Shown in pieces: positions 34,740 through 40,652 of a DNA stretch of 64,000 bases (position 1 is its first letter; every line of letters starts with the position of its first letter). Position numbers and translations under genes: made by a program. The notes under the pieces are model-generated. The model was not told the origin of the DNA. It saw nothing but the letters and a program-made list of their open reading frames with translations, and made no database searches. The stretch is from Myxococcota bacterium. GTDB taxonomy: Bacteria; Myxococcota_A; UBA9042; PHBI01; JAWLBL01. The DNA lies in contig JAWLBL010000004.1 of the NCBI GenBank assembly GCA_041687695.1, forward strand, positions 160,001-224,000, read 5' to 3'.

Positions 34740-34742
34740 CGC

Positions 34743-36764
34743 GTGGCGCGCCTCGGGGCCCTGCTGGCGCTCGCGCTGACCCTGGCGTCGCCTGCGGCGC
34801 GCGCCTTCGACTACCTCGAGCACGCCTACTTCGCCGACCGCGCCTGCTACGAGGCCCAGCGCCGCCTCGCGCCCCTCGTGACCCCCGCGCGCCCCGACGT
34901 CGTCGCCCGCTACCTCGCCCTCGCGCTCGCCTGTCCCGAGCGCTGGGACCGCCCGTACTGCGCGGACGACCTCAAGCAGGCCGAGGCCGGCCTCAACCGC
35001 CTCGAGGCCCCGCCCGCCGCCAGCGGCGACCACGCCCTCACCCTGGGCGACTTCAGCGCCCTGGTCGACCACCTCGCCTGGTTCGGCCCGGTCGGCGGCT
35101 TCCCACGCGCCCGCCAGCCGGGCCTCACCGCCGAGGTCCTGGCCCTGCTCGGCGCCCCCACCACCTCCGGCGGCCTCATCGAGGACGTCGCCGAGGAGGC
35201 CTGCGACAGCGGCGTCGCCGTCCCCTGGGACCGCGTCGAGCACGACGTCCGCAGCGCCCTCGCGGCCTCGGACGCCAGCGGCGCGCCCGTCGCCGTCCCG
35301 CCCGCGCTGCTCGCCCCCAACCGCCGCGCCAGCCCCCACGCCGGCCCCGTCGACCCCGCCGCGCTCCTGTCCTTCAACAACCCCCACTACCTCGACCTCA
35401 AGCTCCACGGCGACGACCACTTCGGCGTCCGCGCCTTCGGCGCCTGGACCGGCTACCACACCGCCGCCCGCGTCATCGCCGCCAGCCGCTGCCAGGACGT
35501 CCTCGCCGTCGACGCCGACCTGCTCGAGGACCTCGCCGACGGCCTCCCCGCCTTCGCCCGCGTCGACTTCGACGACCTCGCGCCCGCCGAACGCGCCCGC
35601 CAGGGCTGCCTCCTCCTCGCCGAGCGCGTCCGCCGGCGCCTGCTCGACTGGCGGCGCCGCGCCGAGCCCGCCCTCACCGCGCCGGCCGCCCCCTTCCTCG
35701 ACGCCTTCGCCGACGGCCCCGCCACCACCGAGGAGGCGCTGCTGCTCGAGCACGTCGTGACGGCCCTGATGGCCGTGGTCTGGGAGGGCGGAGGGCTCCA
35801 CTTCCTCCAGGACGGCCTCTCCGGCGGTCACCTGCGCACCGACCCGACCTCGCGCGCCGGCCTGGGCGAGATCCGCTACGCCCACGACACCGACGGCCAG
35901 TTCGGCCTCTCGGCCGTCCTCACCACGGCCGCCGGCCACGCGCCGTTCGTCGCCTACGGGGACGGCTTCCTGCTCGGCCGCCCCACCGGCGCGCTCGACA
36001 CCTGCGTCTGGGATCGCTTGGGCGACGCGGGTCAGCCGGACGTCACGGCCTGCCTGGTCCAGCACCAACGCGGGCTGCTGGTCGCCCTGGGGGCCGCGAG
36101 CCTGGTCGACTGGGCCCTGGGCGGCGTGCTGCAGGCGCCTCGCGCCGCCGCCGACGGCTGCTCGACGCCGACCGACGCCCCGCACGCCTTCGTTTGCCGC
36201 TTCCTGCCCCTGCGCGCCGTCGCGGCCGCGGGCTACGAACCCCAGGGCCCGCCGCCCACCGAGCTGGCCGAGGGCACCCTGCCGACCCCGCCGCCTCCCT
36301 TCGCCTACCAGTCGCTGTTGACCGTCCTGGCGGCCGACTTCGGCGGCGACGGCGTGCAGGCTGGCGCGCGCCTGGTCTTCCTGAGCGAGCTCGACGATCT
36401 GGCCAACTGGATGTCCAGCTGGCACTTCGGCCTGCTCACGACCCAGGGCGTGCGCCGCAGCGAGCTGCTGGCCGAGTTCTCCTTCATGTTCCACTGGCGC
36501 TGGGCCGCGCGCTTTCTGGTCAACGCCGGCCCCGTCCTGCACGCCGGCTGGCGCGGCTTCGGCGACGACGTGTCGACCTTCGTCGGCCTCGGCCCCAGCG
36601 TCGGCCTCACCTTCCTGCCGGAAGGCTGGACCAAGATCCCGCTCGAGGCGACCTTCAGCCTGCGCCTGCCCGTGACGCTGCTCGACAGCCGCTTCGGCGC
36701 GGCGGACGGCGTGCGCATCGAGGGCTGGTGGTTCGAGATCGGCGTCGGCCTGGCCTTCATGTGA
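34743..36764 (+). CDS. Secreted protein: zinc phospholipase C-like domain plus C-terminal beta-barrel-like region
   Basis: Signal peptide (ARA/FDYLEH); DHF, HFLQD....GHLR, HD.DG; alternating beta-strand C-terminus. Confidence 0.55.
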   Translation: MARLGALLALALTLASPAARAFDYLEHAYFADRACYEAQRRLAPLVTPARPDVVARYLALALACPERWDRPYCADDLKQAEAGLNRLEAPPAASGDHALTLGDFSALVDHLAWFGPVGGFPRARQPGLTAEVLALLGAPTTSGGLIEDVAEEACDSGVAVPWDRVEHDVRSALAASDASGAPVAVPPALLAPNRRASPHAGPVDPAALLSFNNPHYLDLKLHGDDHFGVRAFGAWTGYHTAARVIAASRCQDVLAVDADLLEDLADGLPAFARVDFDDLAPAERARQGCLLLAERVRRRLLDWRRRAEPALTAPAAPFLDAFADGPATTEEALLLEHVVTALMAVVWEGGGLHFLQDGLSGGHLRTDPTSRAGLGEIRYAHDTDGQFGLSAVLTTAAGHAPFVAYGDGFLLGRPTGALDTCVWDRLGDAGQPDVTACLVQHQRGLLVALGAASLVDWALGGVLQAPRAAADGCSTPTDAPHAFVCRFLPLRAVAAAGYEPQGPPPTELAEGTLPTPPPPFAYQSLLTVLAADFGGDGVQAGARLVFLSELDDLANWMSSWHFGLLTTQGVRRSELLAEFSFMFHWRWAARFLVNAGPVLHAGWRGFGDDVSTFVGLGPSVGLTFLPEGWTKIPLEATFSLRLPVTLLDSRFGAADGVRIEGWWFEIGVGLAFM

Positions 36765-36804
36765 CCGCGGCGCTGGCCGACGCGTGACCGTGGCGCTGGC
36801 CGAC
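36761..36804. repeat. Tandem 21-bp direct repeat (23-bp period) spanning the stop codon
   Basis: GTGACCG(C/T)GGCGCTGGCCGAC at 36761 and 36784. Confidence 0.8.
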
Positions 36805-36940
36805 CGGCCAGGACGGCCAGCCAGCGCCTCGATGCACATCCCTTCGGCCGGAACGCGCCAGGGACGTCGCGGCCTCTCGGTGACCGACGCGCCAGGGACG
36901 CCGGCCGTTGCCCACGCGAGGGCCAGGTCCTCGCGTGCGC

Positions 36941-36975
36941 AAAACAAAAACCCGAACGGCCGAGGCCATCCGGGT
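36941..36975 (-). terminator. Intrinsic terminator of the minus-strand giant RNA
   Basis: Minus strand ACCCGGAUGGC-CUCG-GCCGUUCGGGU followed by UUUUGUUUU; two G-U pairs form only on the minus strand. Confidence 0.85.
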
Positions 36976-36985
36976 CTTTGGGGTT

Positions 36986-39136
36986 GACGAGCACAGCCCT
37001 GTGGGGTGTTCCCCTTCGAAGGGTCTCACGGCCTCCCAGCTGCCACGCCGATGTCACCATCGTCGCGGCCTCCTCTCATCGCGTTGGGCTCGACTTCAGA
37101 GTCTCGGGGTGCCTGCCTGGCGCCGCATGGGTTGAGCGCGCCCACCATGGCCTTGGAGCGAGCTCCGGCCTTCGTGGTCTGCAGCAGGTCACCTGGCGCC
37201 GATGAGGGCTCTCACCGTCGCCGTCCTCTCTTGTCGTTGGCCTCGCGTTCAGAGTTTGACCAGAAGCGTGTGTCCATGGCTCGTGACCTCGTCCTCACGA
37301 CCGTCACGATCCTCGCGTTCCCTTCCGTGCCGGCGCGGACGCCGACTTCCTCCATCTCTCTGACGACCCACCAGCTCGCGGAACCCGGGCTGCCGCCTCC
37401 GGCCCTCCCTGTCGGGAGCGCCGCGCCGTCGGCCAGGCCTCGAGGCGAACCTCTCGGCGTGTCCATCGGGCACGAGGCGAAGAACCAGGCGCCAGCGGAG
37501 TGCCTCGTGGCGCTCCGTGGGCGTCCGCTCGGGGGTCAGACGGCCGACGCGCGTCTCGGGTGGCGATCGACCCTCACAGCGTGAGCGCTGCGAGCGTACG
37601 ATCGAGACCCATGACATCGCGACGGGGTGGTGCGACCTAGGTCGCCTCCGCCATCGTCCGACTCGAGCGAGCTCCCGTCGGAACAGCTCCTCGCGTCCTC
37701 TCGCGCGCCTCGCAGGGGTGGGTCGGGGAGACCCCGCACCACCGTGTCCCGGTCAGACCGGGAGGCCGTGGAGACCACGTCCTCCTTGCCCTCCGCCCTC
37801 GCACCGACCAGCCGCGGAGCGGTGGTTCGATGGTCGAGCGCTCGGGCCTCGCGGACGTCTCCGTCCACGAGCGGCGTCGCCCTCCGACTTCAGCCTGCGA
37901 ACCACGCTCGGTGACCGCCAGGGCCCACCCGAAGGCGAACCGTGACGACCCGCGCGTCCCCTCGTGACCCCGCCGAAGCGGGATCCCCCATGACGCTCTC
38001 GACCGAACCGCCCGCCTCCCGGAGGAGACCCCGTCACTGCCTTGCGAGCAGGGGCGGGTGGCGACTCGAGCCTCGGACGAGCCTCGTGGGTCGATGGGAC
38101 CTGCCGACCAGAGCGCCGCCGCCGCGCCGGGACGAGTCCCGGGAGGCGATGCCGCGCTGGGCGACCGAGGAAGGACCGGCGAGCCGGGCCTTCGTGTCCG
38201 CGAACCGAAGCCATCGTGCGCTGCCTACCGAGCGTCCGAACCGTGGAGCCGTGGCGTCCGAGGGGAAACCCCCCGGCCGTTGCTCCCGCCGGATCGGCCG
38301 TCGACGAAGGCAGCCTGACGCGTGACGCATGCGAGCCGTCGATTGCTTCGGGGCCGGCGGACCGAGGTCCGCGTGGCCCCGCCGGGCCCTCGCCATCGTC
38401 CGGGTCTCCCCGGGGTCGCTGGCCAAGGCCGACGCGTGGAGCGGTCGAAGCGGCTGTCGCCGGTTCGAGCCGCGTTCCATGGGCTCGTGTGTCGCATTGA
38501 TGAGAGATGTCGGGCCGGAAAGGGTCGCTCGAATCGATCCGCTCGCGCGGACGCATCGGAGCCGGACGCCCTCCCTTGGGGTTTGGTACCCTTCGACGCT
38601 TGCGGAAGCGAGCAGCGACCCACACCGGGGTTGCCTCCCCCGGCTGAGCTGCGCCTTCAGGTTTTCTCAACCTCTTGACGCCTTGTTCCGCTCGCGACCT
38701 CTCCGGCCTTGTTTCATGCCGGTAACGCCCTTGGGCTTTGCACCTTCAGAGGGTTTCCCCCACCGGTAGCGGGCCTCGCCTCTCGACGACGCCTGCCCTT
38801 CTTGCCGTTCGAATGCCCGGATTCGACAGTAGCCAGGATACCGCTGTCCTCCGTGCCTCGACTTCAAGGATTTACGCATCCGATGGGTCCGTACCGTTCG
38901 GGCCGGTGTTACCCGGGCTCCGAAGGCCGATCCTCTCCTGGCGTTCACCTCTTCGAGGTGTTCCCCCCCTTGGCCTCGGCTTCATGTCTCCATGAAGCCT
39001 CCTCTCTTGGGCTTCGACACGACGCTGAACGGCGAACCGTCCATCGTCGTATGTGCTCTTCAAAGTTTTAAAGAACCAAGGGAGTGGCTTGCCTCTTGCG
39101 AGTGCTGCCGACCTCCATGAGGTTCGTGTCCTCGTC
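36986..39136 (-). ncRNA. Putative giant (~2.15 kb) multi-domain structured non-coding RNA
   Basis: No credible ORF or codon periodicity; terminal helix 39126-39136/36986-36994; nine GAA/A(A,U,G)G internal-loop helices; UUCG/CUCG/GNRA hairpins on the minus strand; terminator downstream. Confidence 0.75.
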
Positions 39137-39203
39137 GGTCCGCGCGAGGCGGGCCGTGTCGGACCTCCCTTGGGCCGCGCTCCCTGGCGTCAACCCTGAG
39201 GCG

Positions 39204-39233
39204 ATAGTGGATCGCCCGACGGAGCTGCCGCAA
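39204..39233 (-). promoter_or_regulatory. Candidate sigma70-type promoter for the giant RNA
   Basis: Minus strand TTGCGG-N18-CACTAT about 70 nt upstream of the terminal helix. Confidence 0.3.
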
Positions 39234-39256
39234 CCCGAATTTTCGGGGGGCGCCGG

Positions 39257-39320
39257 CTGTGGAAAACCAAGCTGTAGGGAAGTCGCGCACTTTCGCACCG
39301 TCTCCCCAAGTTGTCCACAG
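39257..39320. promoter_or_regulatory. Inverted pair of DnaA-box-like sites
   Basis: TGTGGAAAA (39258-39266; reverse complement TTTTCCACA) and TTGTCCACA (39311-39319). Confidence 0.55.
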
Positions 39321-39608
39321 GAAAGCCACACGTCCGCGCGATCGGCCTGCGCCGCACCCGGTGGCCGCGAGAGCATCGCAAGTGCCTGTTTTCACGTGCG
39401 ATCCGGGACGCGGCCCCGTGTCGCGCCGCAAAAGGGTGCCTCGGACGGCCACACGGGGCCGAAGGGCAGGGCGCGGACGCGGCGCCCTCGGGCGCGCTTC
39501 GGGGCGGGCGTTCGCGCGATGCCCACGCGCGATTGGCGTGATGGGGCGCCTGCGCGCGAAGCGCGTGATGGTTGACGGCGGAGGCGCGCGTCGCTACAGG
39601 CCAGCGCC

Positions 39609-40652
39609 ATGGACCTGCCCGGCTACCAGCTCGACGCGCTCCGCGTCCACCCCGGCCTCGTGCTCGCGCCCATGAGCGGCGTCACCGACTCGCCCTTTCG
39701 CCGCTTGGTCAAGGCGGCCAGCGGCGACGCCGTGGGCCTCGTCGTCAGCGAGTTCCTCTCGATCGAGGCGCTCACCCGCCGCGAGCTGCGCAGCATGGTC
39801 CGGCTGGCCTTCCACCCCGAGGAGCGGCCCGTCGGCATCCAGATCTTCGGCGCCGACCCGGTCAAGATGGCCGAGGCCGCCAAGATCGTCGAGGACGCCG
39901 GCGCGGATCTGGTCGACATCAACTGCGGCTGCCCGGCTCCCAAGGTCGTCAAGCGCGGCGGCGGCGCCGGCCTCCTCCGCACCCTGCCGGCGCTGGCCGA
40001 CATCCTGCGCGCCGTGGTCCCGGCGGTCTCGATCCCCGTCACCATCAAGATCCGCAACGGCTGGGACGAGCACACCATCAACGCCCACGACACCCTCGAG
40101 CTGGCGCAGGACTTCGGCGCGCGCGCGGTCGCGATCCACGGCCGCACCCGGATGCAGCTCTACCGCGGCGAGGCCGACTGGGACATCGTCGGCGCGCTCA
40201 AGCAGGCCTCGCGGCTGCCCATCATCGGCTCCGGCGACATCGCGACGCCCGCCGACGCCCGCCGGCGCCTGGCCGACACGGGCTGCGACGGCGTCATGGT
40301 CGGCCGGGGCGCCATCATGAACCCCTGGATCTTCCGCCAGGTCGCCGACGAGCTGGCCGGCCGCGCGCCCACGGTGCCGACCTGGCGCGACAAGATCGCG
40401 CTCCTCGAGCGCTACCGCCAGATGCTGACCGAGATCTACCCGCCCAAGGTCCTGCCGGGCCGGATGCGGATGATGCTCTCGCGCCTCATCAAGGGCTTCC
40501 CGGGCGCGGCCGAGGTCCGCCTGACCTGCGTCAAGATGGACGCGCCCGAGGCGATGCTGGCCACGCTGTCCGAGGCCTGCGAGCGCCTCGAGATCCTGGA
40601 CGCGCCGGCCGTCAGCGTAGACCCGCGCGCCGGCGTCGCCGAGGCGGCCTGA
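39609..40652 (+). CDS. dusB: tRNA-dihydrouridine synthase
   Basis: LAPMSGVTD, DINCGCP, IHGRT, GDI, MVGRG. Confidence 0.9.
   Translation: MDLPGYQLDALRVHPGLVLAPMSGVTDSPFRRLVKAASGDAVGLVVSEFLSIEALTRRELRSMVRLAFHPEERPVGIQIFGADPVKMAEAAKIVEDAGADLVDINCGCPAPKVVKRGGGAGLLRTLPALADILRAVVPAVSIPVTIKIRNGWDEHTINAHDTLELAQDFGARAVAIHGRTRMQLYRGEADWDIVGALKQASRLPIIGSGDIATPADARRRLADTGCDGVMVGRGAIMNPWIFRQVADELAGRAPTVPTWRDKIALLERYRQMLTEIYPPKVLPGRMRMMLSRLIKGFPGAAEVRLTCVKMDAPEAMLATLSEACERLEILDAPAVSVDPRAGVAEAA

Follow-up and report, generated by a model that had tools for sequence, protein, structure and literature searches.

What is encoded by a G+C-rich intergenic region whose minus strand repeats one internal loop of three by three nucleotides (nt) over more than 2 kb? 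We addressed this question for a Myxococcota bacterium (GenBank assembly GCA_041687695.1), in the 64,000-nt stretch of contig JAWLBL010000004.1 that spans positions 160,001 to 224,000 (hereafter the window, to which coordinates refer unless another contig is named). We are confident that 36981..39197 on the minus strand is a stand-alone, expressed and structured RNA gene that reuses a module of three consecutive mismatches. It specifies a large structured RNA of Myxococcota that lies outside every curated RNA family of Rfam 15: none of the 4227 families, including OLE, GOLLD, ROOL, HEARO, RNase P, tmRNA, 6S, the group I and group II introns and the rRNAs, reached its gathering score anywhere in the window, and even at E-values up to 10 the region 36500-39700 returned only microRNA and small RNA noise, far under the cut-offs. 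No description of the family was found in the full-text literature, a search whose coverage ends short of subscription journals and supplements. The RNA measures ~2,200 nt in this genome, where it carries an insertion, and usually ~930-1,100 nt elsewhere in the family. Between 36765 and 39575 there is no open reading frame (ORF) of at least 120 amino acids (aa) with the coding signature of the genome, namely a G+C content at third codon positions (GC3) above 0.85.

Recurrence of the internal loop

A first-pass annotation, made from the letters of this DNA, had listed nine strand pairs in which GAA, flanked by helices, lies opposite A[A/U/G]G, and all nine are exact on the minus strand. The pairs that close domain 3 (GCCC-AAG-GGCGUU at 38736-38724 with AGCGUC-GAA-GGGU at 38600-38588) and lie within it (38680-38671 with 38661-38652) read as described, as do the linkers GAA, CAAA and ACCAAA that separate successive domains. 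Next to the inner loop of domain 1 stands the single A-C mismatch that had been pointed out, and the mismatch is itself conserved in homologues; it could be a protonated A-C pair or an enlargement of the loop.

The motif is far more frequent than composition predicts. With a descriptor in which GAA and A[AUG]G must each be bounded on both sides by four Watson-Crick or G-U pairs, we counted 12 pairs in the 2,261-nt RNA used for motif counts, compared with 1.51 ± 1.31 (maximum 6) in 300 dinucleotide shuffles. These comprise eight of the nine listed pairs, three cross-matches and a tenth true copy that had not been claimed before, while the ninth listed pair fails by its A-C mismatch. When both strands of the 7.97-Mb genome were scanned for local pairs at most 250 nt apart, the locus emerged as the richest 1-kb interval, with five pairs against a background of 0.096 per kb; the two runner-up intervals were set aside, one as a coding tandem repeat and the other as chance hits.

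Predicted fold and its conservation

The proposal that the domains form a wheel around a central multiloop is supported by the fold and the covariation of homologues. RNAalifold, applied to 24 full-length homologues with the window left out, recovers every one of the nine loops as well as the tenth copy. Over 224 pairs, 86.6% of the alignment cells of these homologues are paired compared with 72.0% after shuffling, 174 pairs have changed on both sides compared with 111.5, and the covariation score is 0.433 compared with 0.189; 0 of 500 shuffles reached the observed value for any of the three measures, and slid controls left 40-45% of the cells paired. The covariation that had been seen within a single molecule is therefore backed by covariation between species. 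Indeed, nearly all helices that flank the loops are 85-100% paired in the homologues and show compensatory changes. The domain 4 pair that spans 1.55 kb in the window is likewise real: in homologues its strands lie ~320-400 nt apart and covary, with 97% and 94% of cells paired. For domain 3, 101 distinct sequences gave 96.2% paired cells compared with 82.2% after shuffling, in an alignment that was fitted to a model and thus favours structure, and one G-U pair that is kept in 97 of the 101 fixes the strand.

In the resulting model, which these data support, a terminal stem closes the hub, and the spokes are four domains and a small hairpin, connected by A-rich linkers of 3-6 nt. Each domain is closed by 4 base pairs (bp), the 3x3 loop and then ~5 bp. 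Duplex prediction builds the terminal stem from the first and last ~25 nt, for the window as well as for 21 of 22 homologues, whose sequences differ at the same place (GGUUGGC/GCCAACC, GGCUGGC/GCCAGCC, GUCGGUCAGC/GCUGACCGAC and AGUGGACCUGGAAA/UUUCCAGGUCCAC). Within domain 4, the nested helices X and Y are parted by a 7x7 loop, AGGCCAA/AGCCCAA.

Sequence rule of the module

All ten loops are 3x3 in most of the 24 homologues. GAA opposite A[A/U/G]G describes the copies in the window exactly; as a consensus for the family it proved too narrow, the wider form being GNR opposite RNG with matched outer purines. Among the 101 domain 3 sequences, the inner loop is AAG/GAA in 60, GAG/GAG in 30, GAG/GGG in 7 and something else in 4. 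G stands opposite G in 101 of 101 (base three of the 5' strand, base one of the 3' strand), and in 101 of 101 the outer purines are identical, either A/A or G/G. The middle pair of the domain 3 closing loop, on the other hand, varies widely (A-A 23, U-U 17, U-A 17, A-U 15, G-U 5, C-A 4, and others). The consensus is 5'-R-N-G-3' opposite 5'-G-N-R-3', with an unconstrained middle position and an outer homopurine pair that changes from A/A to G/G.

The helix on the G-G side of the loop is near-invariant and AGAGG/CCUCU-like (in helix 17, AU 20, GC 22, AU 21 and GC 23 of 24), whereas the helix on the other side covaries freely. From this asymmetry we infer that the G-G side is probably read by something, whether a protein or another RNA surface.

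The module does not match the signature of either the sarcin-ricin/loop E or the kink-turn motif. The sarcin-ricin/loop E signature is AGUA/GAA with a bulged G, and an A/A to G/G outer switch is not known to form part of it. Like that motif, the present loop has a GAA strand opposite A-N-purine, A opposite A at one end and stacked non-Watson-Crick pairs, but it is strictly 3x3, with no bulged G or fourth nucleotide, and G/G takes the place of A/G. In a kink-turn, a three-nucleotide bulge is followed by tandem sheared G-A pairs, from which the module differs in that it is symmetric and sets G opposite G rather than A.

Transcript ends and expression

Parts of the stretch are present in 16 RNA-library runs from nine studies, and four runs (X1-X4), one each from four studies (sludge, root, aquatic and compost), were mapped. 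In X1, one contig of 2,224 nt and ~98% identity covers 36982-39188, including the whole insertion, and runs directly into Illumina adapter beyond 39188. X3 covers 36986-39179 and X4 covers 36970-38677. None of the four runs has any depth at 36700-36893 or at 39222-39600, and this silence of the flanking DNA and genes speaks against contamination by DNA. Many Joint Genome Institute (JGI) contigs of 1.0-1.15 kb consist of the RNA alone, beginning and ending at its ends, and at least seven JGI contigs start at position 8-9 of the 5' profile. RNA-seq libraries usually lose 5'-terminal bases, to which we ascribe the missing 8-9 nt, and we do not claim processing. The RNA is abundant in metatranscriptomes (sludge, roots, compost, manure and water), with the proviso that contig depth cannot rank expression.

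At the 3' end, terminators that match the one in the window follow the homologues as well. Run X4 also contains skips of ~1,380 nt (37255/37260 to 38638/38639). Splicing was rejected as their origin, the sides being only 32-37 nt long at 90% likeness, and the skips are read as short-form relatives from other organisms.

Distribution across the Myxococcota

Of 40 related genomes searched at the DNA level, 16 gave matches, or 17 of 41 when the window's own genome is included. A covariance model built from domain 3 (model R1) gave matches in 13 of 18 genomes of the order and in 51 of 107 of the class (35 of 68 of high quality), a patchy distribution, and in 28 of 151 genomes of an even phylum sample, 14 of them from other classes. 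Genomes with matches hold 1-6. Among named genome records, an exact 27-nt pattern had 18 hits, 14 of which are labelled Myxococcota, Myxococcales or Deltaproteobacteria metagenome-assembled genome (MAG). At G071:C217:48428-49491, two domain 3 matches lie ~840 nt apart on one strand, where tandem RNA genes are possible.

A variable insertion in domain 4

Query bases 106-733 and 2040-2312 match stretches that are only 50-200 nt apart in relatives, from which it follows that ~1.3 kb of domain 4 is peculiar to this genome. The insertion site is a peripheral hairpin that directly follows the domain 4 5' strand, and in the family as a whole it is hypervariable. The domain 3 pattern occurs in 79 environmental contigs, of which 37 have the 3' core 253-387 nt further on and six have it after 493-925 nt, 30 have no 3' core within at least 800 nt, and six are too short to tell. 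An insertion common to relatives was ruled out, since the closest environmental ones (75-81% identical in the 5' core) are all of the long class and their inserts are without similarity.

With the inserted sequence, BLAST found no match to the core, to itself, to other fetched loci or to the rest of the genome, and a repeat, an insertion sequence (IS) element and a duplication of the core were rejected on these grounds. Coding capacity was rejected too: the longest ORF (37753-38670, 305 aa) has neither a Pfam family nor coding-type GC3. Among environmental long regions, a Pfam family was found in 0 of 30 ORFs of at least 180 aa, drawn from 118 of at least 110 aa. Compared with shuffles, the central 1,000 nt fold with a z-score of -4.69 when read as the RNA and of only -1.60 when read as its complement, and the loop motif is not enriched in the insertion (4 observed compared with 7.5 ± 3.7 expected). 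By analogy, the insertion behaves like an expansion segment, with a fixed site and free, fast-changing content.

The parallel with rRNA precursors extends to ends that pair in a long stem, a fixed site that takes expansions of variable length, several gene copies and abundance. The RNA differs from them in its lack of an Rfam rRNA match and of a tRNA/rRNA operon, in its length of ~1 kb and in its patchy occurrence in the class.

Several minor observations concern this region. Within the insertion, 109 nt (at 37971-38081) are missing from the strain in run X3, and 39 of the 40 base differences shown between the window and the four runs also fall in the insertion. In another class, L063 (minus strand, 601-2485) carries a G+C-rich expansion of more than 900 nt at the same domain 4 site, and L040, L042 and L044 have several hundred extra, G+C-rich nt in domains 1-2 and 4.

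DnaA-box-like sites upstream of the putative promoter

The DnaA box consensus is TTATCCACA-like. The 300 nt upstream of the RNA contain 9-mers of this kind at conserved places in 12 of 26 loci, where another TGTGGA often stands one helical turn ahead of TGTGGAnAA. Their density upstream is 2.6 per kb compared with 0.0029 per kb genome-wide, and two of the genome's 23 copies lie here; by this consensus the boxes stand near the putative promoter, as expected of a DnaA-regulated one. The gene may thus be under DnaA control, as judged from these sites. In the window, a pair or triplet of DnaA-box-like sites spans 39258-39332, upstream of the putative RNA promoter. Other loci are without these boxes, and some carry TGTCACA/TGTGACA repeats upstream instead. 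The difference suggests that paralogues in one genome may answer to different regulators. The TGTCACA/TGTGACA paralogue type is seen at L005:1200-1320, L010 (minus strand, 1570-1700), L012:400-550 and L040:701-812, and G002 holds both types.

TCCACA cores also cluster near dnaA. Five TCCACA/TGTGGA cores lie just past the 3' end of dnaA at L084:613-786 (G000:C18:45937-46110), which is likely the replication origin. Just one further close pair of these 9-mers exists in the genome, outside the window at G000:C11:39174-39286, where TTTTCCACA and TGTGGAAAA are 104 nt apart.

Possible function

We lean, if only a little, towards a multivalent scaffold, that is, an abundant wheel RNA with ten modules, putatively of fixed geometry, that would serve as docking sites. 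The reading is favoured by the placement of the modules 4 bp from the hub and deeper, by their one invariant and one free side and by the lack of a partner gene. Transcription would start ~40 nt below the putative promoter, which in this paralogue type has DnaA-box-like sites ahead of it, and ends at the intrinsic terminator; the first and last ~25 nt pair as the terminal stem and thereby close the hub of the small hairpin and the four domains. Each domain is closed by 4 bp, the 3x3 loop and the near-invariant AGAGG/CCUCU-type helix, and the module recurs deeper to reach ten copies. With three stacked non-Watson-Crick oppositions (the invariant G/G, the free middle and the outer A/A or G/G), the module may act as a block of fixed geometry that presents identical docking surfaces equidistant from the hub. 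On these, several copies of one protein could assemble, or helices could pack within or between RNA molecules. The 1.3-kb insertion occupies a peripheral domain 4 hairpin that tolerates any length, like an rRNA expansion segment.

Several points weigh against this scaffold. No gene is conserved across the homologous loci that could name a partner, the neighbours being PD40, Bax1-I, acyl-CoA dehydrogenase, SOD, methyltransferase, beta-lactamase, aminotransferase, QueG, LysR and others, and the putative docking role is deduced from patterns of conservation. The near-invariant AGAGG/CCUCU could reflect recent duplication of domains rather than recognition, and in the window the neighbouring domains give model R1 weak secondary matches (at most 12.5 bits), mostly on junction strands. 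With respect to transcription, a strict sigma-70 consensus scan found no promoter at the inferred site, the DnaA-box-like sites are confined to fewer than half of the loci (12 of 26), and abundance is subject to the limit on contig depth given above. Finally, the terminal stem is 57-72% paired in the MAFFT alignment, a low score that we attribute to the poor alignment at the ends.

Among the alternatives, the strongest, which we hold tentatively, is a protein sponge or ribonucleoprotein (RNP) platform, in which the modules would be ten sites for one RNA-binding protein specific for both sequence and shape, perhaps a dimer that reads the near-symmetric loop together with the purine-rich helix, and of which up to ten copies would be titrated or organised. 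Purine-purine runs open the major groove for peptides, as in the Rev site of the HIV Rev-response element (RRE), and in most copies G/G and AGAGG/CCUCU are kept at the level of sequence while the other helices drift compensatorily. A platform of this kind fits less well with the lack of a conserved neighbouring protein gene, and known sponges are simple repeated hairpins, without a conserved multi-domain fold or long-range helices. CsrB and RsmZ, for instance, likewise repeat one short motif about ten times in one RNA, but there the motif is GGA in hairpin loops, whereas here it is a two-strand internal loop within long-range helices, and no Rfam match links the two.

An assembly made of RNA only, with the modules as packing or hinge elements of a compact, multimerising wheel, appears unlikely, although ROOL, GOLLD and OLE offer a precedent; the abstract of PMC12286853 describes all three as forming homo-oligomers. 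The RNA resembles them in size, ornateness and abundance, in the absence of partner genes, in its many domains, dense covariation, lack of an ORF and possession of its own transcription unit, all within the range of hundreds to thousands of nt. With a core of 930-1,100 nt in most homologues, it is longer than the ~600 nt expected of a large, ornate bacterial non-coding RNA and has the extensive covariation-supported structure of that class. In addition, the loops are equidistant from the hub in the predicted fold. The RNA differs from OLE, GOLLD and ROOL in its phylum, in having no Rfam match, in reusing one 3x3 module, in its hypervariable insertion site and in the DnaA-box-like sites upstream, and unlike them it showed no link to phage or membrane-protein genes among the neighbours examined. 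No conserved palindromic kissing loop turned up, although no systematic search was made.

A further idea, combinable with either of these two, is that the functional form is a covalently closed circle, with the terminal stem holding the ends of a linear precursor for ligation. It is prompted by a contig of run X2 that aligns to the window in circularly permuted order, 39172 being joined to 37018, with the outer ends uncovered in that run, and by the 1,097-nt JGI contig L093, which has an exact 123-nt terminal repeat and hence a unit of 974 nt. In L093 the terminal stem's 3' strand continues into its 5' strand through 8 nt that are flanked by the ends of the related linear contigs L154, L113 and L160. 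We consider such a circle doubtful. It is seen in 1 of 4 runs and 1 of 79 contigs, X1 and X3 have linear ends (in X1 with adapter directly at 39188), and the X2 joint lies away from the stem ends. Head-to-tail template switching on a very abundant RNA together with cycle closure by the assembler would look alike, and one clear assembly chimera (L153) exists. We note that the two joint sites in the window, 37018 and 39172, are both one base 5' of AAGGG.

The boldest combination would be an rRNA-like wheel under the control of DnaA, its ends ligated to a circle, its ten modules nucleating a symmetric RNP or RNA-only cage and its hypervariable insert of up to several kb, borne on one spoke, acting as a fast-evolving specificity or decoy element; we regard it as quite improbable. 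If true, it would represent a new class of bacterial RNA machine, and through the DnaA-box-like sites a structural RNA would be linked with the initiator of replication. Few large structured RNAs without an assigned function are known from bacteria and each has opened new RNA biology, and the source phylum is known mostly from uncultured genomes. The single reusable three-mismatch module, with its perfect switch from A/A to G/G, makes the RNA a direct target for cryo-electron microscopy and RNA motif libraries.

It is very improbable that the RNA is an intron-like or mobile element. Its wheel-like arrangement, the large insert that one domain carries, multiple copies per genome and possible circles are reminiscent of group II introns, but there is no match to a group I or group II model (domain V included), no reverse transcriptase ORF and no exons. 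The RNA does not lie between exon junctions of a host gene: a promoter region and a terminator of its own bound it, and the flanking sequence changes from locus to locus. It has no repeats elsewhere in the genome, and an ORF with a family was found in 0 of 1 insert here and in 0 of 30 environmental inserts. A chance or compositional artefact of a G+C-rich intergenic region, in which helices are easy to find, has a negligible probability given that the shuffle controls, the covariation, the phylum-wide homologues and the expression all oppose it.

Coordinates and genomic surroundings

The positions of the features are collected in Table 1.

Table 1. Features of the RNA gene and of its flanks in the window, with the basis of each assignment
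Feature	Position	Strand	Basis
Whole RNA	36981..39197	-	Predicted start ~39197/39196; 3' strand of terminal stem ends at 36981
Terminal stem, 5' strands: P1 GGGUUGAC (39196-39189), 6-nt bulge, P2/P3 GAGCGCGGCCC (39182-39172)	39172..39196	-	Duplex prediction
Terminal stem, 3' strands: GGGCUGUGCUC then GUCAACCC	36981..36999	-	Duplex prediction
Small 5' hairpin D0 (GUCC...GGAC)	39128..39164	-	Homologue alignment, helices 5 and 6
Domain 1, closed by ACCUC-AUG-GAGGU / ACCUC-GAA-GAGGU; inner loop 39065-39055 / 39012-39002	38947..39123	-	Helices 7, 8, 12 and 13 (13 omits the mismatch column)
Domain 2, closed by CGCC-AGG-AGAGG / CCUCU-GAA-GGUG; inner loop 38869-38859 / 38807-38797	38741..38943	-	Helices 16, 17, 23 and 24
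Domain 3, best conserved; closing and inner 3x3 loops	38588..38736	-	Alignment of 101 sequences
Domain 4, closed by CCCC-AAG-GGAGGG / CCCUUC-GAA-GGGG	37011..38581	-	Helices 35 and 36
Variable hairpin (38566-38521), then 1.26-kb lineage-unique insertion	37262..38566	-	Skipped by homologues
Nested helices X (37254-37244 / 37083-37073) and Y (37236-37226 / 37101-37091), each with a loop	37073..37254	-	Helices 41-44
Tenth loop copy, CCAC-GAA-GGCC (37177-37167) with GGCC-AUG-GUGG (37152-37142)	37142..37177	-	Helices 45 and 46, 100% and 95% paired
Intrinsic terminator, G+C-rich stem then UUUUUGUUUU	36941..36974	-	Scan: stem 36964-36951 and T run
Putative promoter, TTGCGG, 18-nt spacer, CACTAT	39204..39233	-	By eye and alignment of 11 upstream regions
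DnaA-box-like 9-mer TTTTCCACA	39258..39266	-	Conserved position -58 to -71
DnaA-box-like 9-mer TGTGGACAA (TTGTCCACA on the plus strand), imperfect TGTGGCTTT just upstream	39311..39319	-	Conserved position -107 to -135

The flanking genes, all on the plus strand, encode an ABC1-type kinase, a 674-aa protein and a dihydrouridine synthase. The ORF of the 674-aa protein (34740-36764) has a strong coding signature, is without a Pfam family and is convergent with the RNA gene. Elsewhere in the genome, outside the window, CGGTCCACAGCG-type repeats form arrays of regular spacing at G000:C2:134202-134850, C5:10049-10630, C5:22548-23040 and C15:152847-153340.

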